DNA of 13,574 bases from a virus (taxonomy: Duplodnaviria; Heunggongvirae; Uroviricota; Caudoviricetes), in IMG/VR virus record IMGVR_UViG_2684622582_000008, positions 1 to 13,574 of that record; one strand, written 5' to 3'. Numbering within the stretch: position 1 is the first letter of the stretch; every line of letters starts with the position of its first letter. This document shows, in pieces, positions 1,089 to 11,899 of the stretch. The notes under the pieces were generated by a model, which was not told the origin of the DNA, did no database searches, and saw only the letters and a program-made list of their open reading frames with translations. The position numbers and the translations under genes were made by a program.

Positions 1089-1111
1089 TTTGGCGGAAGA
1101 TCACAGGAGTC
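1089..1111. repeat. attR: displaced copy of the selC 3' end (direct repeat of 11803-11825)
   Basis: tggcggaagatcacaggagtc at 1091-1111 is identical to 11805-11825; the match extends 2 nt upstream (tt). Imperfect similarity continues into the element (caaaattgcc vs cgaacctgcc). Confidence 0.85.
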
Positions 1112-1233
1112 AAAATTGCCATATAACCACTTGATTCAAATCGTTTATATTTTTCTATTCTAATTCATTTATACACATCCTTATACATATAATATCTATC
1201 GATTAATTGTTACACGTATCTTCACGCACGTTA

Positions 1234-1540
1234 ACTCAGGAAAAAAATTTTTTTTCGGAAGAACTGTTCACACTGTTCACCTTTCTGTTTTCTCCTTTTA
1301 TTTCAGTTTGATAGGTGGTGAATAATGGGTGAAGGGTGAACATTCGATTCTTCACCTCCGGCATTCTGCCGGTGTGACTCATACCGGTGATTAATCCTCC
1401 GCACTGAAATCACTCAGGAAGAAAAAAGTTTTTTTGATTTGATTGTTCACACTGTTCACCTTTCGTTTTTCTCTTTTAATTTCAGTGTGATAACGGGTGA
1501 ATATACGGTGAAGGGTGAACAGTGGATTGTTCACCTTCGG
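1234..1540. repeat. crr-like cis replication region: two ~128-bp direct repeats (1234-1361 and 1412-1540), each with several TGTTCACC/GGTGAACA type-I-like iterons
   Basis: The two segments align almost base for base (actcaggaa...ttcacactgttcacctttc...ggtgaagggtgaaca...ttcacc). Octamers such as tgttcaca (1265-1272), tgttcacc (1274-1281) and ggtgaaca (1335-1342) are present. Position directly downstream of alpha matches P4 crr. Confidence 0.75.
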
Positions 1541-1554
1541 GGGATTCAGGGATG

Positions 1555-1578
1555 AAAAAAGACCGGCAGATGCCGGTC
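1555..1578 (-). terminator. Rho-independent terminator downstream of alpha
   Basis: Stem gaccggc/gccggtc (1561-1567 and 1572-1578) with a 4-nt loop. On the minus strand it is followed by a run of six T (complement of aaaaaa at 1555-1560), 17 nt past the alpha stop. Confidence 0.55.
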
Positions 1579-1594
1579 AGATGAGTCATGAGGG

Positions 1595-3928
1595 TCAGGT
1601 TGTTGCAGGGTCGTCACATTTTGGCAGCCAGTCGCCGTAGCTTTCCTCTTTCAGCGTCAGGTTGGTCTGTATCCCCTGTTTGGTATGGCGCTTCTCGTAA
1701 TTCAGCCCGTATTCCTTCAGCATCACCGGCAGCCCCAGCCCGAACATTTTCAGACTGAGTACATTCCGGTAGCCGTTTGCCTCCATGTAGGCCAGATAGG
1801 CGTGATAGAGGTATTTACGGTAATTACGCGGGATGATACTGGCGTTCCCCATATACATGCCGCTGGTCTGCGGCAGGGTTTCCAGATAGCCGATAAAATC
1901 AAACGTCGGGTCGGCATCCCGTTTGATGTTCAGTGCCTCGTCTGAGTTCTGCTGGGACTGAAGCAGTGACCGGGCGAGCATCGGGTCGCTGAATTTCTGC
2001 ATCAGGTGACGCACGATGACCGCCAGCTCGCGGGTGATTTTGTCCTTAAGCTGCGGGTCGCGCTCCTGCGGGGCTATCTGTTCCGGGAAGTGAATAATCA
2101 CCCGCCGGCGTGACACGCCGCCGCTGCGGTCGGTGAAGCGCATCGGGTTATTGTTCACGGCCAGAATCACCGCCGGGATATGCGTGGAGTACGCATCCCG
2201 GTATTTCGGGTCCACGGACACCGCATCGCCGCCGGTGATGGCCTTGAGTCCGGCACCGTCGCCGCTCCATTTTTCCTGGTCCGGCAGGCGTATCAGTGAG
2301 AAGCCAGTTAACGCGGCACGTTCACGCGGGGATTCCAGCGTCTCAATGGTGGCCGATGTGGCGTTATCCTCCCCGGCCAGCAGGGTGGCGATTTCGGCCA
2401 TGATACTTTTGCCGCTGCCGCCGGGACCGGTCACCTCCAGAAAGAGCTGCCAGTCGTAGCGGTTTGCCAGCACCATAAACAGTGCGGCCAGAATCACGTC
2501 GCGTTTTTCCGCACGGCCACCGGCGGCACGGTCAAGCCAGCGCCAGAACGCGGGGGCGTGGTTTTCCAGCGTTTCCCCTTCCACCGGCGGGGTGAAATCC
2601 ACATCGCACAGGGTGCGCATCCAGTGTGACGGACTGTGCAGGTGGAACGTGCCGTTCTGCGTGTCGAGCACGCCGTTACGAAAGCCAATCAGGCGGCGGG
2701 AGGGGGCTTCCTGCTGCGGAATAATCAGCTTCAGGGTGTCCACCACGGAGGCCACCTTCCCGGAGGAGAACGGCGCGCGCAGACGCTGAAACAGCCCGGC
2801 CACATCCCGGGCAAAGTCCTGTGGCGGCAGCATCTTCCAGACACCATTTTCATAGCGGGACAGAAGCTGGCCGTTGGCATCGACCGCGAGCGCCTCGCCG
2901 TAATGCTCATAGATACGCATGGCCTTTTCGCTGGTACTCATGGCGGAAAACTCCGCTTCGCTCATGGTGTCGAACGGGCTTTCAGCCGGTGGCCGGATGG
3001 CATCGTAAATGGCCTTACGGGTGGCCTCCCCGCCGTACTGCGTGAAGGCATCATTCCAGTCACCGAAGACCGGCGGCAGGGCAACAACGCCCTCACACGC
3101 ATCTGCGGCTGCGGCGGCTTTTTTCTGGCCGTCACCGCTGAGGTCACGGTCAGCAGCAAGGACAATCTGACAGGCCGGATGCTTCTGCCGGGCAAGGCTG
3201 GCCAGAGAAAGGAGGTTCACGGAAGAAAGCGCCACCATCACCGTTTCACCGGTCAGGTGATGTACGGTAAGTGCGGTCGCGTATCCCTCCGCTATCCACA
3301 GACGTTTTCCGGCCTGATTCTGTCCTTCAAGGATGTGACAGGTGCCCCTGACCTGTCCGCCTTTCAGGGTGCGCTTACGGCCGTCAGCACTGATTAACTG
3401 AAGGTTAACCAGTTCGCCGCTGTCGTCATACAGTGGCACCACAAGGTCACCGGCACGCCAGCTCACGCCACCGGCTCTGTGTGTGCCGGTCAGCATCCGG
3501 CATTCCCGGCCGGGAAAGCCCTTGCGGGTCAGGTAGGCGTTACCGGTTCCGGGACGGGTTTTCGCCATCAGGGTTTGTGCCAGTGCGGCGGCGTTCTTCC
3601 GGGCAGCGTCTGTTTCAGCAACGGCGGCGGCCGTCACTGCCGGGTCAGCCGGGGGCAGGCTGCCGGTCACGGCAGCCACCTTTGTGGCCGCGTCGGACGG
3701 GGAGACACCAAACACCTTTTCAACCAGTTTCAGGCCGTCACCGGCACCACACTGATTGCAGTACCAGGTGCCGCGCCCCTCCCTGTCATCAAAACGGAAG
3801 CGGTCACTCCCGCCACAGACCGGACAGGGCTGATGACGGTTTTTCAGCACCTGAATCCCCAGCGCCGGGAGGATACGCGGCCAGTGGCCGAGCGCATGGC
3901 TGACGGTGGCGGTTACGTTCATTTTCAT
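1595..3928 (-). CDS. alpha: P4 alpha-type primase-helicase (zinc-binding primase N-terminus, central/C-terminal P-loop helicase), 777 aa
   Basis: ATG at 3928 with GGAG upstream. N-terminal CPVCGG...WYCNQCG zinc-binding motif; Walker A GPGGSGKS; length equals P4 alpha (777 aa); flanked by crr iterons. Confidence 0.85.
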   Translation of the reverse strand: MKMNVTATVSHALGHWPRILPALGIQVLKNRHQPCPVCGGSDRFRFDDREGRGTWYCNQCGAGDGLKLVEKVFGVSPSDAATKVAAVTGSLPPADPAVTAAAVAETDAARKNAAALAQTLMAKTRPGTGNAYLTRKGFPGRECRMLTGTHRAGGVSWRAGDLVVPLYDDSGELVNLQLISADGRKRTLKGGQVRGTCHILEGQNQAGKRLWIAEGYATALTVHHLTGETVMVALSSVNLLSLASLARQKHPACQIVLAADRDLSGDGQKKAAAAADACEGVVALPPVFGDWNDAFTQYGGEATRKAIYDAIRPPAESPFDTMSEAEFSAMSTSEKAMRIYEHYGEALAVDANGQLLSRYENGVWKMLPPQDFARDVAGLFQRLRAPFSSGKVASVVDTLKLIIPQQEAPSRRLIGFRNGVLDTQNGTFHLHSPSHWMRTLCDVDFTPPVEGETLENHAPAFWRWLDRAAGGRAEKRDVILAALFMVLANRYDWQLFLEVTGPGGSGKSIMAEIATLLAGEDNATSATIETLESPRERAALTGFSLIRLPDQEKWSGDGAGLKAITGGDAVSVDPKYRDAYSTHIPAVILAVNNNPMRFTDRSGGVSRRRVIIHFPEQIAPQERDPQLKDKITRELAVIVRHLMQKFSDPMLARSLLQSQQNSDEALNIKRDADPTFDFIGYLETLPQTSGMYMGNASIIPRNYRKYLYHAYLAYMEANGYRNVLSLKMFGLGLPVMLKEYGLNYEKRHTKQGIQTNLTLKEESYGDWLPKCDDPATT

Positions 3929-3942
3929 GGTGTTGTTCTCCT

Positions 3943-4263
3943 TCAGTGCAGTACCGGCGCTTTTATGTGACGGGCACAGAGTTCATCCATCACAACCAGC
4001 CCGAGAAAGGACAGCGACGGCGCGGCCTTCAGGGGGCCGGATTCCATTAAATCTTCCAGCAGGGCACAGGCTATCTGACGCCCTTTTTCCTCACCGTGCT
4101 GGCGCAGATAAAAGCCTTCCAGCTCAGCGGCGATGGCCGCCTCCAGTGATTCAAGGGTGAGATGCGGGTAGCGGTGCTGACGTTCGCACACGGTCAGCCA
4201 GGCACAGGCGACAGCGCGACGGTAAAGGGCTGCGCGTAAGACGGGCGGTAAGGGGGTTTTCAT
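3943..4263 (-). CDS. cnr: P4 orf106-like small protein (possibly Cnr copy-number regulator), 106 aa
   Basis: ATG at 4263 preceded by GGGAGG. Ends 14 nt upstream of the alpha start, so it is in the operon. Size and position match P4 orf106; the cnr name is from memory and tentative. Confidence 0.5.
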
Positions 4264-4398
4264 TTGTTTTCCTCCCTGTGACAGATGACTGCATTCCGTG
4301 CCGGTTGCATTAACTGATAAGGCATATCTGCGTCTCCTGAAGACGTGCGTATCCCTGCGCGAATACGCACATTTAATTTTTCGGGTGTCGTTTTTTAA

Positions 4399-4854
4399 TT
4401 ACAGATAATTGCGGTAACTGTTATCCGGGGTGATTTCCGGGTCAGGCTCCGTGCGGGAAATTTCCCGCCATTCCCGCGCCACCGGTGCCGCCCGGCTGGC
4501 CGGAACAGTGTCCTGCGGGTAAATATCCAGATATTTCTCCCGCCATTTCTGTAATTCCGGGTCTCCGGCCATTTCTTTCAGTACCGCATGCCGGTTTACG
4601 GGGCTGCGTTTGAACAGGTCAGGACGGTCACAGGTAAATTCCCGCAGAAAACGCCCCAGCGGGATGTCTGTGGTGCGCCCGTCAGTGAGGATACGCACAA
4701 GGATACTGAATTTTCGGCGGTACGGGTTCCAGACAATTTCCGGACAGCGGTACGGCATTTCCCACGGAATACCGTCTTCCAGAATGCCGACCACGGCCAC
4801 ATCGGGAAAACCGGCAGAACGGTAAATCTCACCGGGCTGGGGAAAATCAAACAT
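4399..4854 (-). CDS. P4 orf151-like hypothetical protein, 151 aa
   Basis: ATG at 4854; start overlaps the stop of the upstream epsilon-like ORF by 8 nt (coupling). Size and position match P4 orf151. Confidence 0.6.
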   Translation of the reverse strand: MFDFPQPGEIYRSAGFPDVAVVGILEDGIPWEMPYRCPEIVWNPYRRKFSILVRILTDGRTTDIPLGRFLREFTCDRPDLFKRSPVNRHAVLKEMAGDPELQKWREKYLDIYPQDTVPASRAAPVAREWREISRTEPDPEITPDNSYRNYL

Positions 4855-5134
4855 GTGTCCTGTCTCCCCGGTCTTTCTGCTGGGCGAGAAAATCGCGGCA
4901 CAGGCCTTTGGCTTTCAGCTCATTCAGCACAAAATCAATATCTTCATTCAGGTAGCTGAAAATATGCGGAATGTAGAGCTGATGCAGGCCGGAGAGTTCA
5001 CGGTGAATCAAATCACCCCCAACAAACCGGGATACTGCGCTGGCGCGGTTGAGCTTATGGTAAGCCTCAATGCTGAGGTGTTCACGGGCGTCATGACGCG
5101 CTGAGACGGTCTGAGGGGCTTTTTTATTACGCAC
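4847..5134 (-). CDS. epsilon: Epsilon-like protein (P2-type helper derepressor), 95 aa if GTG start at 5134
   Basis: In-frame GTG at 5134 preceded by GGAGG (revcomp of cctcc at 5141-5145). Overlaps the stop of the upstream 65-aa ORF (GTGCGTAA). Alternative in-frame ATG starts at 5179 or 5215 cannot be excluded. Function inferred from position and size only. Confidence 0.5.
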
Positions 5135-5324
5135 GGGACACCTCCACCACCGGCAGACGGGCAGCAAGGGAGAGCACATAGTCACGGACAAGGGAACGGC
5201 GGGCGCTGCGTTCATCACCGGCGACGGTGCGAAGCATGCAGATACGGGGATGACGGTCTGCGCGACGGACAGCCGCAAACACAAAGACAAATTCAGGGTG
5301 TGAAGGGGTAAGGGTTGTAGCCAT
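5127..5324 (-). CDS. Small hypothetical protein (65 aa), first well-supported ORF after the leader
   Basis: ATG at 5324 with AAGGAGA 7 nt upstream; TAA stop at 5127. It is the C-terminal part of a longer open frame (5127-5762) that I do not accept as one gene. Confidence 0.45.
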
Positions 5325-5355
5325 AAGGCAGTCTCCTTCGAGTAGCAAATAACTG

Positions 5356-5619
5356 CTATCGCCGGAGTTCCTACGCTCGATGGCGATAGCCCAGACGGGG
5401 GTAGGAATACCGGCCTCGAAGAATACCGGCCAGCCCGGAGGCTGCCCCGCCTGAGCTACCATTGACTCAGTGGCATAACATGCGATTGCGAACAGGATCA
5501 TACCTGCACGGCAAACCACACGCCACACCATAATCTGGCGCTCTGTGGCGTTGATTGCGACACAAAAAAAGACGCATGGCGCGTCATATGTCGCCTTCGA
5601 GTTACACGGGTTCCTACGC
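5356..5619 (-). ncRNA. Candidate P4-type immunity leader (cI-like RNA with seqA/seqB/seqC-like elements)
   Basis: No RBS-supported ORF between the vis stop and 5324. gttcctacgc occurs twice (5367-5376 and 5610-5619); ggggtaggaat at 5397-5407 is near-complementary (8/10) to it. Hairpin ctatcgcc/ggcgatag (5356-5363 and 5382-5389). Order on the leftward transcript (copy, complement, copy) matches the P4 seqA-cI(seqB)-seqC layout. Confidence 0.35.
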
Positions 5620-5648
5620 CCGGCTGCCGATTTTGCGGCAGCGGAAAA

Positions 5649-5678
5649 ACTATATCCGCAAATGCCGGAAAAAGGCAA
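5649..5678 (-). promoter_or_regulatory. Candidate constitutive leftward promoter (PLE-like)
   Basis: On the minus strand: TTGCCT (-35; plus 5673-5678) and TATAGT (-10; plus 5649-5654) with 18-bp spacing, just downstream of vis. Confidence 0.3.
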
Positions 5679-5713
5679 GCCAGAAAAAGGGAGTTTTTGC
5701 AGAGCGGGCATCA

Positions 5714-5980
5714 TCATGCGTCGTACCCCCGTTTGCGTCCGGCAATGCGCCCGGCCATCCATGCGGTGATTTCAGAGTGCAGCCAGGCCACATTTTTACC
5801 GCCAAGACTCACCTGCGGCGGAAATTCCCCCTTACGGATGAGTTCGTAGATGGTCGAGCGTGACAGGCCGCACAGGTGCATCACTTCCGGCAGACGTAAA
5901 AAACGCTCCTGCGTGATGTCCGGCAGCGGCATCAGTGGCGTCACAGGGGCGGGAGACGGGGAAGAAAAAACAGCTTGCAT
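5714..5980 (-). CDS. vis: AlpA/Vis-family helix-turn-helix regulator/excisionase (P4 orf88 vis-like), 88 aa
   Basis: ATG at 5980 with GAGGT upstream. Segment [29 protein letters not shown]...[10 protein letters not shown] is typical of AlpA-family proteins. Length equals P4 orf88 (vis). Confidence 0.75.
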
Positions 5981-6081
5981 CGGGCTACCTCGTTAATGTC
6001 CATACAGCACCGGATAAGTCCGTCCGGCTTCGGGTAGCGCTTTATTTTGTGAATATTTTCAGCAGACGCAACAGGGGGATT

Positions 6082-6099
6082 TGTTCAGGCTGCCTTACA
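6082..6099 (-). promoter_or_regulatory. Delta/Ogr-type activator site (TGT-N12-ACA) of a leftward late promoter (PLL-like) upstream of vis
   Basis: tgt tcaggctgcctt aca at 6082-6099, centred about 110 bp upstream of the vis start. Confidence 0.5.
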
Positions 6100-6257
6100 A
6101 TGACTGTGTGTTTTTTATCCATCTGGACTGGAAGGGTCTCAAAGGGTTCTGAAGGACCTGGAATTTTTTATAGTGAAATACAAATTGTTTTTTCTTATTT
6201 ATTTCAGTGAATTAATAAAAATAAACAGTAGTAAACAGCACAAAAAGTCCATGAGCG

Positions 6258-6361
6258 GGTGAACAGTGGTGAACAGACGGTGAACAGTCATTACTGCGAT
6301 TGTTCACCCTTTAACTTACTGTATTACTTATCTTTTTTATTAAGGTGAACAGAGGTGAACA
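6258..6361. repeat. ori-like cluster of six type-I-like iterons (GGTGAACA/TGTTCACC)
   Basis: ggtgaaca at 6258-6265, 6268-6275, 6279-6286, 6344-6351 and 6354-6361; inverted tgttcacc at 6301-6308. Same octamer as in the crr-like repeats about 4.8 kb away. Confidence 0.7.
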
Positions 6362-6440
6362 GTAAAATATAAAAAAACAAACAGTAAGCCGGTTTTTCCT
6401 GCGACCTTTTCCTGGCTTGCCGGTGTGAGGATGAGTCTCC

Positions 6441-6458
6441 TGTGTCAGGGCTGGCACA
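6441..6458 (+). promoter_or_regulatory. Delta/Ogr-type activator site (TGT-N12-ACA) of Psid late promoter
   Basis: tgt gtcagggctggc aca at 6441-6458, centred about 80 bp upstream of the sid ATG (6531). Confidence 0.55.
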
Positions 6459-6530
6459 TCTGCAATGCGTCGTGTTGTTGTCCGGTGTACGTCACAATTT
6501 TCTTAACCTGAAGTGACGAGGAGCCGGAAA

Positions 6531-7265
6531 ATGTCTGACAACACCATCCCTGAATATCTGCAACCCGCGCTGGCACAACTGGAAAAGGCCAGAGCCGCCC
6601 ATCTTGAGAACGCCCGCCTGATGGATGAGACCGTCACGGCCATTGAACGGGCAGAGCAGGAAAAAAATGCGCTGGCGCAGGCCGACGGAAACGACGCTGA
6701 CGACTGGCGCACGGCCTTTCGTGCAGCCGGTGGTGTCCTGAGCGACGAGCTGAAACAGCGCCACATTGAGCGCGTGGCACGCCGGGAGCTGGTACAGGAA
6801 TATGACAATCTGGCCGTGGTGCTGAATTTCGAACGTGAACGCCTGAAAGGGGGGTGTGACAGCACGGCCACCGCCTACCGGAAGGCACATCATCACCTTC
6901 TGAGTCTGTATGCAGAGCATGAGCTGGAACACGCCCTGAATGAAACCTGTGAGGCGCTTGTCCGGGCAATGCATCTGAGCATTCTGGTACAGGAAAATCC
7001 GCTCGCCAACACCACCGGCCATCAGGGCTACGTCGCACCGGAAAAGGCTGTCATGCAGCAGGTGAAATCATCGCTGGAACAGAAAATTAAACAGATGCAA
7101 ATCAGCCTCACCGGCGAGCCGGTTCTCCGGCTGACCGGACTGTCAGCGGCAACACTCCCGCACATGGATTATGAGGTGGCAGGCACACCGGCACAGCGCA
7201 AGGTGTGGCAGGACAAAATAGACCAGCAGGGAGCAGAGCTTAAGGCCAGAGGACTGCTGTCATGA
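6531..7265 (+). CDS. sid: Sid-like capsid size-determination (external scaffold) protein, 244 aa
   Basis: ATG at 6531 with GAGGAG 8 nt upstream (the ORF-track GTG at 6513 has no RBS). Length equals P4 Sid; first gene of the sid-delta-psu operon. Confidence 0.8.
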   Translation: MSDNTIPEYLQPALAQLEKARAAHLENARLMDETVTAIERAEQEKNALAQADGNDADDWRTAFRAAGGVLSDELKQRHIERVARRELVQEYDNLAVVLNFERERLKGGCDSTATAYRKAHHHLLSLYAEHELEHALNETCEALVRAMHLSILVQENPLANTTGHQGYVAPEKAVMQQVKSSLEQKIKQMQISLTGEPVLRLTGLSAATLPHMDYEVAGTPAQRKVWQDKIDQQGAELKARGLLS

Positions 7266-7762
7266 TTTACTGCCCGTCGTGTGGACATGTTGCTCACACC
7301 CGTCGCGCACATTTCATGGACGATGGCACCAAGATAATGATTGCACAGTGCCGGAATATTTATTGCTCTGCGACATTTGAAGCGAGTGAAAGCTTTTTCT
7401 CTGACAGTAAAGATTCAGGAATGGAATACATTTCAGGCAAACAGAGATACCGCGATTCACTGACGTCAGCCTCCGGCAGTATGAAACGCCCGAAAAGAAT
7501 GCTTGTTACCGGATATTGTTGTCGGAGATGTAAAGGCCTTGCACTGTCAAGAACATCGCGGCGTCTGTCTCAGGAAGTCACCGAGCGTTTTTATGTGTGC
7601 ACGGATCCGGGCTGTGGTCTGGTGTTTAAAACGCTTCAGACCATCAACCGTTTCATTGTCCGCCCGGTCACGCCGGACGAACTGGCAGAAAGCCTGCATG
7701 AAAAACAGGAACTGCCGCCAGTACGCTTAAAAACACAATCATATTCGCTGCGTCTGGAATGA
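7262..7762 (+). CDS. delta: Delta-like late transcriptional activator (tandem Ogr-type zinc-finger domains), 166 aa
   Basis: ATG overlaps the sid stop (ATGA). CPSCGH...C..C and a second C..CC..C...C..C cysteine cluster are consistent with duplicated Ogr-like zinc fingers. Length equals P4 Delta. Confidence 0.8.
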   Translation: MIYCPSCGHVAHTRRAHFMDDGTKIMIAQCRNIYCSATFEASESFFSDSKDSGMEYISGKQRYRDSLTSASGSMKRPKRMLVTGYCCRRCKGLALSRTSRRLSQEVTERFYVCTDPGCGLVFKTLQTINRFIVRPVTPDELAESLHEKQELPPVRLKTQSYSLRLE

Positions 7763-7835
7763 GGGCTGCCGGTTAACACCGGCCGTCGCCGCACACCGTA
7801 TTTTTATTCTTCAGCATGATGAGAAAGAGATAACG

Positions 7836-8408
7836 ATGGAAAGCACAGCCTTACAGCAGGCCTTTGACACCTGTCAGAATAACAAAGCAGCATGGCTGCA
7901 ACGCAAAAATGAGCTGGCAGCGGCCGAACAGGAATATCTGCGGCTTCTGTCAGGAGAAGGCAGAAACGTCAGTCGCCTGGACGAATTACGCAATATTATC
8001 GAAGTCAGAAAATGGCAGGTGAATCAGGCCGCTGGTCGTTATATTCGTTCGCATGAAGCCGTTCAGCACATCAGCATCCGCGACCGGCTGAATGATTTTA
8101 TGCAGCAGCACGGCACAGCACTGGCGGCGGCACTGGCACCGGAGCTGATGGGCTACAGTGAGCTGACGGCCATTGCCCGAAACTGTGCCATACAGCGTGC
8201 CACAGATGCCCTGCGTGAAGCCCTCCTGTCCTGGCTTGCGAAGGGGGAAAAAATTAATTATTCCGCACAGGATAGCGACATTTTAACGACCATCGGATTC
8301 AGGCCTGACGCGGCTTCGGTGGATGACAGCCGTGAAAAATTCACCCCTGCGCAGAACATGATTTTTTCGCGTAAAAGTGCGCAACTGGCATCACGTCAGT
8401 CTGTGTAA
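7836..8408 (+). CDS. psu: Psu-like polarity suppression protein (Rho antagonist / capsid decoration), 190 aa
   Basis: Third gene of the late operon; length equals P4 Psu; N-terminus MESTALQQAFDTCQNN matches my recollection of P4 Psu. Confidence 0.8.
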   Translation: MESTALQQAFDTCQNNKAAWLQRKNELAAAEQEYLRLLSGEGRNVSRLDELRNIIEVRKWQVNQAAGRYIRSHEAVQHISIRDRLNDFMQQHGTALAAALAPELMGYSELTAIARNCAIQRATDALREALLSWLAKGEKINYSAQDSDILTTIGFRPDAASVDDSREKFTPAQNMIFSRKSAQLASRQSV

Positions 8409-8444
8409 AATTCCCCGAAAATCCGCCTGTTTTTACTGAAAAAA

Positions 8445-8483
8445 GCCATGCATCGATAAGGTGCATGGCTTTGCATGCGTTTT
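8445..8483 (+). terminator. Candidate terminator after psu
   Basis: Stem gccatgca/tgcatggc (8445-8452 and 8462-8469) followed by a T-rich tract tttgcatgcgtttt. Confidence 0.4.
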
Positions 8484-8572
8484 CCTGCCTCATTTTCTGC
8501 AGACCGCGCCATTCCCGGCGCGGCCTGAGCGTGTCAGTGAAACTGCATTAAAACCGCCCCGCAAAGCGGGCG

Positions 8573-8591
8573 GGCGAGGCGGGGAAAGCAC
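8573..8591. other. cos-like cohesive-end site (P2/P4-type 19-mer)
   Basis: ggcgaggcggggaaagcac matches the P2/P4 cohesive-end sequence as I recall it; it lies between psu and the cargo gene, as in P4. Confidence 0.65.
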
Positions 8592-8620
8592 TGCGCGCAT
8601 GTATGCAGGAAATAACCTGA

Positions 8621-8666
8621 CTCTCCAGCCAGAGAAAGAAACTGAACTGGAGAGTTTTTTGTTTTT
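8621..8666. terminator. Stem-loop with flanking T/A tracts between cos and the cargo gene
   Basis: ctctccag (8621-8628) pairs with ctggagag (8647-8654), followed by ttttttgttttt (8655-8666). It sits about 25 nt past the stop of the minus-strand cargo gene. Confidence 0.35.
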
Positions 8667-8678
8667 ACATGGATGTGT

Positions 8679-10439
8679 TCAGTTTTTATTTATGAATGAA
8701 ATACTGTTCTCTAGTGACTCCTTTACTTTTTTCACGGTGTTTTTTAACTCAATAATGGCTCCGCGACGAAAAGAAATTGAAAGTTCATTCAGGTAAGAAT
8801 TTAAGAACTCATCTAGTTTTTTTAGATGAGGTAGCTCGTTAGATAGATAATCGCGAAGGTTAGAAAAGTTGTATACAGATAATAGATGGTCTGAAAACAT
8901 TTGAATATCGTAAATGGACCAATTATGTTGTATGGCACTTATGATTAAATTTACATCTAAAGTTTCCAGTGCTTTAAACTTGAAATCTGAATGATATATA
9001 TCCATATCGATAGTGGTCCAACCATCGTTAACCATCTTGTTTTTTAATTCTTCTATTCTTTCTCTTTTTGTTATGTTAATATATTTGTCAACAAAAAAGT
9101 TATATAAATTATCTCCATCATGTTTTAGCATATTTAGTGGGATGTCATTGATGTTTGGCACGGTTTTATGAAAATATGATTTTATTTCATCGTCACTGAA
9201 GCTAAGTTTGCTTTGATTAATGGTGTCTTCATCTAGGGTGTTTATATGAGGTATATATTCATATTTTGAGAGTCTAATATAGTTATTCGTGGCAATTAAC
9301 CATGTAGATAGATCTGGAGAATTTGATTTTAAAATTGTTTTTATTATTTCTTCCTGATAGTCATGTTCAGATATGTTATATAACTCAGGTCTTAATAATC
9401 CAGCATAATCATTTCTCTTGGGAGGGGTATTGTCAGTAAAAACATATGGAAGAATGTCTTTATGCGAAATTGCATTAAAACAATATGGAGCCATTTTATT
9501 ATTATAGTTTTTGTATGCACTAATACTTAATAAATTGTTTTCTTCTTCACTTATTTCATTGTGTTCGTTTTCTGGTGTGGTTGAAATTGTTTTGAGTGAT
9601 GATGAAACAAAATTTTCACGAAACTCATTTTCCTTATAGTTGAATTTTTCCTTAAGTATTATATGTGCACACAATGAGCTTACTAAATTTTTAATATCTA
9701 TATCAGAGATATCTCTGTCTTGCGTTGTTTGTTCAAACAACGGTAGGAGTTTTACAATGACTCTATTAATGATTCGGATATTTGTTTCTTCGAAATCTAT
9801 AATTACTTGCTTAATGATGTCTCTATAATTTTCTTGTATTTTCTCAAGCTTTTTATCTAAAATGTCAGAAAGATTGTTTATAGAAAAGTATACCTCGTCG
9901 CTAATAACTTTTTCTTTATGATTCAATACCTCATTGCTTTGTTTTGAAAAATTACCAACTAAAATATAGTCTAACATCTTGTTATTTTGATAATTTTGTA
10001 AGCAAAAGGTTGCTATTTCATCTCGCAAATTTTGAGGTATACGTTCTAGATCATCAATAATAAAAACTCCTGAAAGATCTTTTAATACATAATGTTGCAT
10101 TGCCCCTGCAAATGTTGATATTATTTTTCCAGTAAACTTCCCAGTGCTTTCTTCTTTAGTAATAGCTGTGGTTACATTTGATGCTAACTCTGTAATTATT
10201 TCTATATCGGGTGGATTCTCTAAATAAGTTACACTCAACACCTTGTCTTTAAAATCTTGCAAACTATTTAATCCAAGCACAGATATATAAAATTGAGTTT
10301 TGTTGGAATAATATTGCTTAAATTCATTTTGAAGGAAGAATGTTTTACCAACCCCCCACTCACCGTTTAACAAAATTAGACCTTCACGTTTTTCATTTAG
10401 TAATCTAATTAAAACAGATATTATTGTGTTTTTATCCAT
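8679..10439 (-). CDS. KAP-family-like P-loop NTPase with large uncharacterised C-terminal region, 586 aa; candidate anti-phage defence cargo in the P4 hotspot
   Basis: ATG at 10439 with AAGGAG upstream. Walker A GEWGVGKT (GxWGxGKT type) and Walker B VFIIDDLER (hhhhDDL[DE]R type) in the first ~135 aa. Very AT-rich compared with the P4 backbone. Occupies the gop/beta/cII position between cos and int. Confidence 0.7.
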   Translation of the reverse strand: MDKNTIISVLIRLLNEKREGLILLNGEWGVGKTFFLQNEFKQYYSNKTQFYISVLGLNSLQDFKDKVLSVTYLENPPDIEIITELASNVTTAITKEESTGKFTGKIISTFAGAMQHYVLKDLSGVFIIDDLERIPQNLRDEIATFCLQNYQNNKMLDYILVGNFSKQSNEVLNHKEKVISDEVYFSINNLSDILDKKLEKIQENYRDIIKQVIIDFEETNIRIINRVIVKLLPLFEQTTQDRDISDIDIKNLVSSLCAHIILKEKFNYKENEFRENFVSSSLKTISTTPENEHNEISEEENNLLSISAYKNYNNKMAPYCFNAISHKDILPYVFTDNTPPKRNDYAGLLRPELYNISEHDYQEEIIKTILKSNSPDLSTWLIATNNYIRLSKYEYIPHINTLDEDTINQSKLSFSDDEIKSYFHKTVPNINDIPLNMLKHDGDNLYNFFVDKYINITKRERIEELKNKMVNDGWTTIDMDIYHSDFKFKALETLDVNLIISAIQHNWSIYDIQMFSDHLLSVYNFSNLRDYLSNELPHLKKLDEFLNSYLNELSISFRRGAIIELKNTVKKVKESLENSISFINKN

Positions 10440-10469
10440 AAAATACTCCTTTTAGTAATTATAATTAAC

Positions 10470-11642
10470 TCAATCTGCTGGATAAATAAAGTCACTATAC
10501 CATTGTAACATCTTTAATCTTTTCTCTAAATATTGAGCATGATTATATGTTCCCCTAATGCTATTTTTATCAACATGAGCTAGTTGCATTTCAATCCATG
10601 CACTATCAAAACCTTGTTCATGTAGTATTGTCGACATTGTATGTCTAAACCCGTGGCCTGTTGCACGTCCCTTATAACCAAGTAATTCGATCACTTGTGA
10701 TATACTTTCTTTAGAAATTGGTTTAGTACGATTATTACGTCCAATAAATATATAAGGATAATGGCTAGAGATGGGTTTTAATTGATTAAATAGGGTAATC
10801 ACTTGAGATGATAAAGGTACAAGGTGAGGCCGACGCATTTTCATGCGTTCTGCTGGTATTTCCCATATTCCTTTTTCTAAATTGACTTCTTCCCATGTGG
10901 CAAAACGCAGCTCTTGTGTTCTTACTCCGGTAAGCATCACAATCTTGGTTGCATTTTTAGTGATTATGCTGCCAGTGTAAGCCTCCAGATCTTTGACAAA
11001 ATAAGGGAGTTCTTCTGCTGATAGAAAAGGATGATGTTTTTGCTTCGGTACAGCTAATGCGATAGCTAAATCAGGTGCTGGATTGTATTCAGCACGGCCA
11101 GTGATGATCGCGTAGCGAAACACCTCTCCGCATCGTTGACGTACTTTTCTGGTTTTCTCCAACGCTCCACGTTTTTCTATGCGTTTAAGTACTTCAAGCA
11201 GTTCTAGGGGTTTAATTTCAGCTATTGGCCGTTTACCAATGAAAGGAAAAACATCCTGTTCAAATGTTTTAATAATTTCTTCGCGATAAGCTAGAGTCCA
11301 ACGATCTGCTTTTGCTGCGTGCCATTCTCTGCTAACTGCCTCAAAAGAGGTTTCAATTGATAATTTCTGAGCAATTTTCTGAGCCTTACGTTCTTCTACT
11401 GGATCAATGCCGTTTGCAACCTGTTTACGTGCCGTATCGCGTTTCTCACGTGCTTCTGCGAGGCTTACTAAATCATAGCTGCCAAATGACATTAACCGCG
11501 CTTTCCCAGCAAATCTGAAACGGAAACGCCAGCCTTTCGAGCCATCTGGATTGATAAGCAACGACAGACCTTGTCCATCGTTCAATGTGTATGGCTTGTC
11601 TTGTGGTTTTGCACGTTTGATCTGTATATCGGTTAGAGCCAT
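10470..11642 (-). CDS. int: Tyrosine site-specific integrase (P4/CP4-57-like family), 390 aa
   Basis: N-terminus MALTDIQIKRAKPQDKPYTL...WRFRFRF is typical of P4-family integrases. C-terminal catalytic region GHGFRHT...LAHVDKNSIRGTYNH. Lies adjacent to tRNA-Sec. AT-rich. Weak RBS. Confidence 0.85.
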   Translation of the reverse strand: MALTDIQIKRAKPQDKPYTLNDGQGLSLLINPDGSKGWRFRFRFAGKARLMSFGSYDLVSLAEAREKRDTARKQVANGIDPVEERKAQKIAQKLSIETSFEAVSREWHAAKADRWTLAYREEIIKTFEQDVFPFIGKRPIAEIKPLELLEVLKRIEKRGALEKTRKVRQRCGEVFRYAIITGRAEYNPAPDLAIALAVPKQKHHPFLSAEELPYFVKDLEAYTGSIITKNATKIVMLTGVRTQELRFATWEEVNLEKGIWEIPAERMKMRRPHLVPLSSQVITLFNQLKPISSHYPYIFIGRNNRTKPISKESISQVIELLGYKGRATGHGFRHTMSTILHEQGFDSAWIEMQLAHVDKNSIRGTYNHAQYLEKRLKMLQWYSDFIYPAD

Positions 11643-11804
11643 GTGTATAACTGAAAACTACGTATAAAAAATCTATACACATTACTATACATATTTTTCG
11701 CGGATTCAGGGAGATGAACTCGGACTATTACGGATAAGATGATTATTCATCGTATTGAATACAAAGGGTTTTATGGAGCGTCTCGGAACTGGCTGGATGA
11801 AGTT

Positions 11805-11899
11805 TGGCGGAAGATCACAGGAGTCGAACCTGCCCGGGACCGCTGGCGGCCCCAACTGGATTTGAAGTCCAGCCGCCTCACCGGAGACGACGATCTTCC
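11805..11899 (-). tRNA. selC: tRNA-Sec (selenocysteine tRNA), intact; its 3' end forms attL
   Basis: The reverse complement of 11805-11899 reads GGAAGATCGTCGTCTCCGGTGAGGCGGCTGGACTTCAAATCCAGTTGGGGCCGCCAGCGGTCCCGGGCAGGTTCGACTCCTGTGATCTTCCGCCA, matching E. coli selC as recalled, including the long variable arm and CCA end. Confidence 0.9.

Follow-up and report, generated by a model that had tools for sequence, protein, structure and literature searches.

A P4-like phage satellite at selC with a KAP-type cargo gene in the psu-int hotspot: co-divergence of the cargo with the 3' end of the integrase gene

In the 13,574-nucleotide stretch of viral DNA analysed here (the window), positions 1089-11825 are an integrated P4-like phage satellite of ~10.7 kb at selC. 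In our opinion, and we would put the probability at about 80%, this satellite is made of a P4 backbone, a recombination module and a cargo cassette, the cassettes being swapped via homology in the 3' part of the integrase gene (int) while the 5' part of int reassorts. We find that the last ~420 nt of int co-diverge with the cargo, a KAP-type NTPase gene, and that the 5' two-thirds of int do not. The region 10440-11825 is a selC-specific integrase and attachment-site module adjoining the known, fast-swapping defence-gene slot of the satellite. Recombination module and cargo are two separate exchange units of a well-described mosaic kind, not a new combined cassette, and the int-KAP arrangement adds an ordinary example to a kind already known.

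The identity of the element is easy to illustrate. Its backbone is 97.4% identical in nucleotide sequence to phage P4 (NC_001609) over 1242-8599 (~7.3 kb). A profile search gives Pfam matches for alpha, delta, psu and ash, Rfam matches in the backbone are C4, isrK and c4-a1b1, and 86 of the 88 residues of Vis are those of P4 Vis. A 119-nt sequence occurs twice in direct orientation, at 1243-1361 and 1422-1540, and matches P4 crr. The features by which a P4-like satellite is recognised are present: the core gene set of int, alpha primase, sid, delta, psu, alpA/vis and the immunity region, the cos site, the crr repeats, and a tRNA gene where the element is bounded by directly repeated att cores. 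We also considered rhuM as a second satellite cargo and rejected it, since it lies outside the att core. The features are collected in the table.

Table. Features of the satellite and its flank in the window
Feature	Position	Strand	Basis or content
Second att core copy, far satellite end	1089-1111		23-nt direct repeat, TTTGGCGGAAGATCACAGGAGTC
attP P' arm	1112-1241	-	GC 0.277; tandem arm-type repeats at 1170 and 1182; P4 homology only from 1242
P4 backbone	1242-8572		crr, alpha, orf106, orf151, epsilon, CI RNA region, vis, sid, delta, psu
Structured region with terminator-like hairpins 3' of cargo, abutting cos	8554-8633	-	terminator-like sites 8633-8616 and 8573-8554
cos 19-mer and end of P4 homology	8573-8599	+	cos GGCGAGGCGGGGAAAGCAC at 8573-8591; sharp psu/cos-side edge of hotspot
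Cargo, soluble KAP/AAA_22 P-loop NTPase, 586 aa, candidate single-gene anti-phage protein	8679-10439	-	Pfam, PADLOC, phrog_4740
int-cargo spacer, 30 nt	10440-10469	-	Shine-Dalgarno AAGGAG, no terminator
Cassette-specific int tail: last 6 codons (FIYPAD) and stop, after conserved QWYSD	10470-10491	-	int-side edge of variable hotspot
int 3' third, co-segregating with cargo (nt 721-1173, aa 241-390)	10470-10922	-	identity and composition
int, selC-specific P4-family tyrosine integrase, 390 aa	10470-11642	-	ORF, Pfam, catalytic motifs
attP P arm and int upstream region	11643-11802	-	tandem arm-type repeats TATACA(C/T)AT at 11674 and 11686
att core copy overlapping tRNA-Sec 3' end	11803-11825		23-nt direct repeat, TTTGGCGGAAGATCACAGGAGTC
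tRNA-Sec	11805-11899	-	adjoins int

What differs from P4 is int, both attP arms with their arm-type repeats, and the cargo; on the 97%-identical backbone this block of cargo, int and attP has been replaced whole. Backbones with 99-100% identical Psu carry three int types: leuX (P4), selC (the window) and thrW (locus L071). The integrase itself has full-length Pfam domains Arm-DNA-bind_3 (PF13356), Phage_int_M (PF22022) and Phage_integrase (PF00589), with E-values of 1e-27, 4e-35 and 1e-25. Its catalytic residues, assigned by motif and not by structure, are R241 (TGVRTQEL), H330-x-x-R333 (HGFRHT), H356 (LAHV) and Y366 (RGTY). Identity is 81-98% at the amino acid level to selC-type integrases of other satellites, and E. 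coli genomes hold many relatives of the gene at 68-87% nucleotide identity.

The initial annotation proposed selC as the target, and the attachment sites agree with it. The integrase gene adjoins tRNA-Sec, the 23-nt core is repeated at both ends of the satellite (none expected by chance, as judged from 200 shuffles), and tRNA-Sec adjoins every selC-type int locus that has upstream flank. From these repeats and this neighbourhood we infer that Int acts at the selC att sites. All five copies of TATACA(C/T)AT in the window fall within the att arms, with ~0.2 expected by chance; the fifth, at 11641-11649, is inverted and extends over the int ATG. Neither arm is homologous to P4. The P' arm belongs to the int/attP module but sits at the opposite end of the integrated element.

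The cargo protein carries a Walker A motif at residues 26-33 and a Walker B motif at 125-130. At its N-terminus AAA_22 scores 30.9 bits, higher than KAP_NTPase (PF07693), which reaches 22.1 bits against a cut-off of 20 and matches in part only (profile positions 3-121 of 293). There is a full-length match to phrog_4740 and a match of partial coverage to PADLOC PDC-S49 (E 2e-12). In classical KAP NTPases the P-loop domain commonly contains, or is followed by, transmembrane helices; unlike them, the window protein shows no transmembrane segment, its maximum 19-residue Kyte-Doolittle hydropathy being 1.18. Weak profile matches and location, in P4 and P2 hotspots, suggest that the protein is probably anti-phage. 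It would add one more single-gene P-loop candidate defence protein to the documented P4 psu-int hotspot.

Where else does this gene occur? A full-length KAP gene is present in 33 E. coli genomes, and in all seven whose context was read it lies in a P4-like satellite at selC. E. coli EC19 and EC596 are examples, with loci that are 99.7% identical. The int-KAP pair is also found at selC in Klebsiella, Serratia, Yersinia, Hafnia, Mangrovibacter, Kosakonia and Salmonella. The initial annotation called for a look at int-KAP pairs outside P4 backgrounds; the pair does recur widely, in E. coli and seven further genera, and the selC pairs are in P4-like satellites. In Pectobacterium and Citrobacter KAP follows thrW-type integrases, at tRNA-Thr(CGT), only 62-65% identical, and in a P2-like phage a 53% KAP homologue occupies a hotspot that has no integrase near it. 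The int-3'/KAP-5' junction is retained in a decayed fragment at another place in E. coli. A scan of genome contigs with the KAP protein, which reaches close relatives only, returned a single identical contig of 3.6 kb, recorded as part of a Streptococcus MAG, on which tRNA-Sec lies upstream of KAP with room for int between; the same scan of viral contigs, with the same reach, gave no match, and neither did a tblastn comparison with GenBank phage records. The Shimwellia KAP locus (L107) ends 259 nt upstream of KAP and is uninformative on int.

The hotspot has two edges of different character. On the psu/cos side homology to P4 stops at 8599, and homology to satellites with other cargo at 8598. 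On the int side homology with HAD- and HEPN-bearing satellites resumes only at 10486-10492, and the tails of int differ among cargo classes. Closely similar backbones bear unrelated cargo, and near-identical elements vary between conserved cos/psu and int, which is how a hotspot is recognised. The cargo occupies the published psu/cos-int defence hotspot, and the int-side boundary overlaps the int 3' end. Behind the 42 selC-type int loci we count 23 cargo configurations, with cargo GC of 0.29-0.42.

Linkage between int and cargo depends on the part of int that is compared. The first 720 nt of the window int are 94-97% identical to those of ints preceding HAD or HEPN cargo, whereas its 3' third is only 75-78% identical to ints with other cargo. 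Across 42 loci, nine of them with KAP, nt 721-1140 are 85.6% identical in KAP-KAP pairs vs 80.4% in KAP-nonKAP pairs (permutation p=0.0005, a value inflated by relatedness, because some loci are closely related and four E. coli loci were picked for carrying KAP); over the 5' segments KAP-linked ints are not more alike (p=0.23 and 0.15). The share of different-cargo pairs that are at least 95% identical falls from 8.3% at nt 1-240 to 0.1% at nt 961-1140, and the identity matrix of the int 3' part follows that of KAP. In the Pectobacterium int the last 50 codons are nearest to selC KAP-linked ints, with which it has the C-terminal motif KRLKMLQWY in common, and codons 241-330 are nearest to its own type. 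Compared with loci L003 and L004, the diverged block takes ~80% of int (from ~nt 240), beyond the last third; thus in some lineages nearly the whole of int would be inherited with KAP. The idea that int and cargo were acquired jointly finds support in the 3' third, which co-diverges with KAP, and none in the 5' two-thirds, which are shared with HAD- and HEPN-cargo ints.

Composition was part of the original argument for joint acquisition. It is correct that composition is non-uniform and that int is markedly more AT-rich than the backbone: its GC is 40.2% vs 55.4%, outside the backbone range (lowest 1173-nt sliding window 0.495), and its GC3 is 0.286 vs 0.48-0.72 in backbone genes. The use of this AT-richness as a sign of co-acquisition does not survive comparison. 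P4 int has 46% GC vs 61% for P4 alpha, and all 42 selC-type ints have 40-46%, whatever their cargo. In each of these, GC drops from 5' to 3' and is lower in the last 400 nt; the same drop is seen in 40 ints of other types and in P4 int. Hence we rejected low GC of the int 3' end as a trait of KAP cargo. Overall, int and cargo are unlike (GC 0.40 vs 0.29; cargo GC3 0.249), and only nt 721-1173 of int, with GC 0.353 and GC3 0.219, resemble the cargo at synonymous sites. AT-richness is a trait of the integrase family, stronger towards the cargo, and no mark of joint acquisition with KAP.

The geometry of the junction stands as first annotated: int stops (10472-10470) 30 nt upstream of the cargo ATG (10439), both genes on the minus strand, with AAGGAG 8 nt before the ATG. 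A terminator between the genes would have spoken against a shared transcript, and a scan of the 30-nt junction finds no terminator-like site. The junction RNA is unstructured (z +0.81), and the 141 nt 3' of the cargo gene are strongly structured (fold z -3.43). In 11 diverged KAP loci the gap after int is 10-40 nt, each time with an SD-like motif, and KAP is co-oriented with int in every locus seen; this same spacing and orientation extends across nine genera. Co-transcription of int and KAP is plausible on this arrangement. The int 3' end also contains a promoter-like site at 10530-10502 (TTTAGA-17-TACAAT, with TG upstream) and the spacer a perfect TATAAT, so that independent transcription of KAP is possible.

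The last point leads to an alternative that in our opinion is unlikely: that the tie is functional, the int 3' region holding promoter or translational-coupling signals of the cargo, so that selection keeps the two together. In most co-oriented cargo types the cargo starts no more than ~50 nt from the int stop, and in several KAP loci the distance is 10-13 nt, too short for a promoter to fit between the genes. Together with the invariable orientation of KAP this speaks for such a tie, as does an extended -10-like element, TGTTACAAT, 55 nt upstream of the KAP ATG, which the window shares with L002, Serratia, Yersinia and Klebsiella. However, other KAP-linked ints lack the element or have a degraded form of it (TGCAGT in L029-L033; ATGATGCA in L003, L004 and Mangrovibacter), and the element falls in codons for the conserved peptide MLQW. 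Promoter-like matches near the junction are not above chance in this AT-rich DNA (12 found vs 14.1 expected in shuffles), and recombination distance alone predicts the linkage gradient. Because the matches are at chance level and the element is not conserved in all KAP-linked ints, an internal int-3' promoter was not adopted as the main explanation.

The initial annotation raised another account as a possibility, in which the whole of int and KAP came together as a foreign AT-rich cassette coupling selC specificity to defence cargo. Indeed the two AT-rich genes adjoin each other in the same orientation and no terminator separates them; at selC the pair is found in E. coli and seven other genera, most of int diverges with KAP in the comparison with L003 and L004, and even the decayed E. 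coli fragment preserves the junction. We nevertheless consider this account very improbable. It is largely refuted already by the 5' identity with HAD- and HEPN-cargo ints, and the GC of int differs from that of the cargo and is common to ints with unrelated cargo and to P4 int. A cassette linking site specificity to cargo is further at odds with 23 cargo configurations behind one type of integrase, with KAP behind thrW-type ints and, in the P2-like phage, behind none, and with a KAP phylogeny that does not track int type. Adjacency to int carries little weight, being forced for any single-gene cargo because int bounds the hotspot; co-orientation is no special feature either, since only 15 of the 23 cargo types have it and Rousset et al. 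(2022, PMC9122126) describe defence systems in either orientation. We give still less credence to the view that the int-KAP association stems from a single, vertically inherited selC satellite lineage in which modules were never exchanged. The selC KAP loci are indeed all P4-like satellites with identical gene order, but comparisons within E. coli give 97-100% identity for the backbones against 55-84% for KAP and 70-88% for int; identity to P4 reaches 99% for alpha and only 41% for Int, and unrelated cargo sits on closely similar backbones.

Our preferred reading is thus modular exchange. The data show how the element is laid out, where its mosaic boundaries fall, its base composition and the gradient of linkage; the mode of recombination, the shared transcript and the role in defence are inferred. 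One unit is the backbone, almost identical to phage P4. A second joins int and the att core to both attP arms and their arm-type Int-binding repeats; it has been exchanged whole relative to P4 and would set selC specificity. The third is the single-gene KAP/AAA_22 P-loop NTPase cassette, placed in the known defence hotspot that is flanked by cos/psu and int. Recombination would replace cargo cassettes with one sharp breakpoint ~26 nt past cos and another that reaches more or less far into the 3' part of int, where the C-terminal coding region, conserved across P4-family integrases, would serve as homology arm. Such a variable breakpoint would account for the cassette-specific tail and for hitchhiking of the last ~400-450 nt; each cassette would come with an int tail, a stop codon and a ribosome-binding site of its own, and the 5' two-thirds of int, encoding the arm-binding and core-binding domains, would reassort freely. 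KAP would most likely be the distal gene of an int-KAP transcript ending at the hairpins beside cos, to which a weak promoter in the int 3' end may contribute.

It is tempting to go further, tentatively, and to speculate that the int 3' end is a general homology arm shuttling defence cassettes across integrases and tRNA targets, with KAP distal on an autoregulated int transcript. If this were true, every cassette would have a private integrase C-terminus, and the defence gene would be wired to the control circuit of the integrase. The present data reveal no new type of mobile cassette and no coupling of integration-site choice to defence content. They do offer a base-pair view of where cassettes are cut, ~26 nt past cos and within a stretch of int that ranges from its final codons to its final third. 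This is of practical use for delimiting hotspot cargo automatically and for deciding how much upstream sequence to clone as a "native promoter", which may lie inside int.

Phage P4 itself is the closest known system. It has the same order of psu, cos, accessory genes, int and attP; there, too, a co-oriented accessory gene, cII, comes after int with a gap of 66 nt, and a terminator comes next; and its arm repeats also come as two tandem copies per arm, spaced by 12 nt, with an inverted copy over the int start. The differences are that P4 Int, with 41% amino acid identity, targets leuX and the window Int selC, that the arm repeat is GGGGGCA in P4 and TATACA(C/T)AT in the window, and that P4 carries gop, beta and cII where the window has a single KAP NTPase gene. 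Pathogenicity islands at selC carry P4-family (DUF4102 arm-type) integrases. These have the same domain architecture and target as the window int, but they reside in large islands, whereas the window int belongs to a complete ~10.7-kb P4-like satellite.

The P4 psu-int hotspot, which adjoins cos, is described by Rousset et al. (2022, PMC9122126) and Moura de Sousa et al. (2026, PMC13586616). The former propose cos and homologous recombination as the exchange route for hotspot systems; the latter, whose set comprises 3085 P4-like satellites, report rapid swapping of defence systems, with a correlation to individual core genes of at most 0.2. The window cargo agrees with these accounts in its location, in AT-rich unrelated cargo on near-identical backbones, in rapid turnover and in weak linkage to core genes. 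The latter work also contains Reve, a single-gene ATPase and KAP P-loop defence system from the P4 hotspot, to which we liken the window KAP on the basis of its description. Beyond what the accessible parts of the two papers contain, the present analysis places the int-side boundary of the hotspot within the last ~20 nt of int, finds that linkage between int and cargo decays from 3' to 5' along int, and describes a KAP family that is always co-oriented with int and starts 10-40 nt after it.

The initial annotation suggested that the selC-specific integrase gene (int) and the KAP gene behind it may have been acquired together, in one cassette joining site specificity to defence cargo. The underlying observation is confirmed: int lies at selC, with tRNA-Sec directly upstream and an att core overlapping the tRNA 3' end; it is AT-rich relative to the P4 backbone, so GC is indeed not uniform; and its stop codon is separated from the cargo ATG on the same strand by 30 nt (GTTAATTATAATTACTAAAAGGAGTATTTT). 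The interpretation is partly supported. In our reading of the sequences, Int with attP is one exchangeable module, overlapped by another that consists of the cargo and the 3' end of int; the two are not one cassette.

Features of the window and their composition
Feature	Position	Strand	GC	GC3	Remarks
tRNA-Sec	11805-11899	minus			sole tRNA in window
int, 390-aa ORF	11642-10470	minus	0.402	0.286	directly downstream of tRNA-Sec; Arm-DNA-bind_3, Phage_int_M, Phage_integrase, all full-length
int stop codon	10472-10470	minus
cargo (KAP gene), 586-aa ORF	10439-8679	minus	0.291	0.249	ATG at 10439
att core, 23 nt	right copy ends 11825; second copy 1089-1111				right copy overlaps tRNA-Sec 3' end
crr	1243-1361, 1422-1540				119-nt direct repeats, 80% identical mutually; correspond to P4 crr (cis-required replication region)
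C4 antisense RNA (P4 CI immunity RNA)	5379-5466	minus			Rfam
isrK	5565-5642	minus			Rfam
c4-a1b1 target sites	5603-5655	minus			Rfam
backbone genes			0.49-0.61	0.48-0.72
whole backbone			0.554		lowest 1173-nt window 0.495
host flanks			0.48-0.50

Since the att core is found at both ends, the integrated element extends from 1089 to 11825. Window positions 1242-8599 match phage P4 at 97.4% identity (P4 positions 4291-11624, then 1-27), in the order crr, alpha, immunity region, vis, sid, delta and psu, through the cos 19-mer (8573-8591), and the RNA-based immunity system of P4 appears intact. In the comparison with P4, homology is absent from 8600-11825 and from 1112-1241, which the circular form joins into one block of cargo, int, P arm, core and P' arm. 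Amino acid identity to P4 is 41% for Int, 99% for alpha and 98% for delta. Further, backbones whose Psu is 99-100% identical are paired with three int types, namely leuX (P4), selC (the window) and thrW (locus L071). Int has its catalytic residues by motif (R241, H330-x-x-R333, H356, Y366), and the att arms carry a repeat of their own, TATACA(C/T)AT, in tandem pairs with 12-nt spacing at 11674/11686 and 1170/1182, with an inverted copy over the int ATG. The layout equals that of the GGGGGCA arm repeats of P4; therefore Int, core and arm sites would form a coherent recombination module, swapped whole.

Several observations belong beside these. In the phage collection, Int is nearer to integrases of Sf6, HK633, and Klebsiella or Erwinia phages (46-49% aa identity) than to P4 Int. 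Vis/AlpA, the excisionase and regulator (5714-5980, minus), shares 86 of 88 amino acids with P4 Vis, despite the divergent Int and unrelated attP arms. A 373-aa RhuM ORF (1-1122, minus) starts inside the satellite end and reads across the left att core, thus rhuM lies outside the P4-like element, in the older island DNA of the selC site; at that position only a 129-162-nt rhuM pseudogene remains in most E. coli loci, and locus L005 has an intact copy.

Site specificity does not seem to be coupled to cargo. The scan of IMG/VR with the int protein returned 80 loci, which we pooled with the window and five E. coli loci; the 42 loci with at least 86% aa identity, our definition of selC-type int, have 23 different cargo configurations. 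The commonest cargo is KAP (5/36 in the unbiased part of the sample), and in 15 of these 23 types int and the first cargo ORF point the same way. Among complete E. coli genomes, 898 have a full-length relative of the window int and only 33 a full-length KAP gene. Against L005 (HAD cargo) and L006 (HEPN cargo), homology ends at 8598 on the cos side and restarts at 10486-10492, which is 16-22 nt within int, just past the conserved QWYSD. As this edge is inside int, each cassette would bring its own end of the int reading frame (a few codons and the stop) and a ribosome-binding site.

What remains of the proposed joint module is the 3' part of int. Nucleotides 1-720 are 94-97% identical to L005, despite its HAD cargo, and 241-540 are 97% identical to L006, whereas 721-1140 are near only to E. 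coli JML285 (L002; 97%, KAP gene 89.5% identical), all others being at 75-86%. When all pairs are compared, identity of at least 95% is reached by 8.3%, 5.0%, 5.5%, 2.2% and 0.1% of the pairs with different cargo, for successive int segments from 5' to 3'. Identity over nt 721-1140 is 85.6% for KAP-KAP and 80.4% for KAP/non-KAP comparisons (permutation p=0.0005, a test inflated by kinship among some of the 42 loci, nine of which have KAP); upstream, KAP loci are not more alike (p=0.23 for nt 1-360, p=0.15 for nt 361-720). The identity matrix of the int 3' part mirrors that of KAP, and against the KAP-linked L003 and L004 the co-diverged block extends up to about nt 240. In L002 (11033-11064, equivalent to 10440-10472), TGA to TGT abolishes the int stop; Int is thereby 6 codons longer, taking up part of the spacer, and 12 nt instead of 30 separate it from KAP.

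AT-richness, which had been taken as a mark of co-acquisition, is in our opinion no such sign, judging from the family's composition. GC falls along int from 0.433 (nt 1-720) to 0.353 (nt 721-1173), where GC3 is 0.219, matching the cargo. However, all P4-family ints examined, with any cargo, are AT-poorer than their cargo and AT-richer than their own backbone (P4: int 0.46, alpha 0.61). Int GC is 0.40-0.46 in selC-type loci with KAP, HAD, HEPN or other cargo and 0.44-0.49 in other genera, and the fall is family-wide (selC-type quintiles 0.50, 0.44, 0.46, 0.43, 0.37; other int types and P4 int alike).

The KAP protein has Walker A and B motifs and weak matches to AAA_22, KAP_NTPase, PADLOC PDC-S49 and phrog_4740; no transmembrane segment was found in its 586 residues. 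Homologues (53-86% aa identity) occur across Enterobacterales. The int-KAP pair recurs in P4-like satellites of seven further genera, there with a selC-type int ahead of KAP (Serratia, Yersinia, Klebsiella, Hafnia, Mangrovibacter, Kosakonia, Salmonella), but a P2-like prophage (L019, a JGI metagenome contig) has a 53% homologue in its A-Q hotspot (8001-9734), beside a DNA methylase and GmrSD and HEPN genes and away from any integrase; here the family seems to have been shared long ago, not transferred recently. In Pectobacterium and Citrobacter, the int ahead of KAP is of the tRNA-Thr(CGT) type, with 62-65% aa identity to the window Int. By sequence (71-72% aa), the Pectobacterium KAP belongs with those linked to selC; its int is nearest selC KAP-linked ints over the last 50 codons, nearest its own type over codons 241-330, and shares the peptide KRLKMLQWY with the window int. 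This suggests that the KAP cassette crossed int types, bringing a piece of the int 3' end along. Separately, E. coli XJ5.2 (L008, 7001-7491) and four other genomes have an unannotated decayed fragment matching 10082-10575 (80.8% identity). It spans the junction, with 104 nt from the 3' end of int on one side and 358 nt from the 5' end of the KAP gene on the other, and lies among pseudogenes beside the sgc operon, far from selC. A 3.6-kb contig labelled uncultured Streptococcus MAG (CABTZI010000154.1) has a tRNA-Sec upstream of the KAP gene 100% identical to the window's; it probably came from E. coli through a binning error.

As to transcription, the terminator scan and RNA fold of the junction found no terminator-like site or stable structure between the genes; strong hairpins (fold z -3.43) lie 3' of KAP, abutting cos. 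An independent promoter has some points in its favour, namely TATAAT in the spacer and TTTAGA-17-TACAAT within the int 3' end (10530-10502), yet promoter-like matches do not exceed chance (12 against 14.1 in shuffles), and the latter motif is not kept in all KAP-linked ints. Moreover, 11 diverged KAP loci have an SD-like motif in a gap of 10-40 nt, and the gaps of 10-13 nt are too short to hold a promoter. Given all this, putative co-transcription from the int promoter would be the simplest reading of the sequence. In P4, Int and Vis reportedly repress int expression (Piazzolla et al. 2006, as cited in PMC2951348), and since an arm-type site covers the int start here too, a purely int-driven cargo gene would be autoregulated.

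The locus is of a known kind, because the hotspot, its rapid swapping and the P4 layout (int, co-oriented cII, terminator) have been described. Rousset et al. 2022 (PMC9122126) describe the psu-int hotspot as adjoining cos, with systems in either orientation, and propose exchange by cos-end recombination and a second homologous recombination event. Moura de Sousa et al. 2026 (PMC13586616) report very fast swapping, with correlations to individual core genes of at most 0.2, and validated Reve, a single-gene ATPase + KAP system from a P4 hotspot, whose description resembles that of the window KAP protein. To this our analysis adds the exact int-side boundary, the 3' to 5' decay of linkage within int, and the finding that members of this KAP family keep one orientation and a constant spacing.
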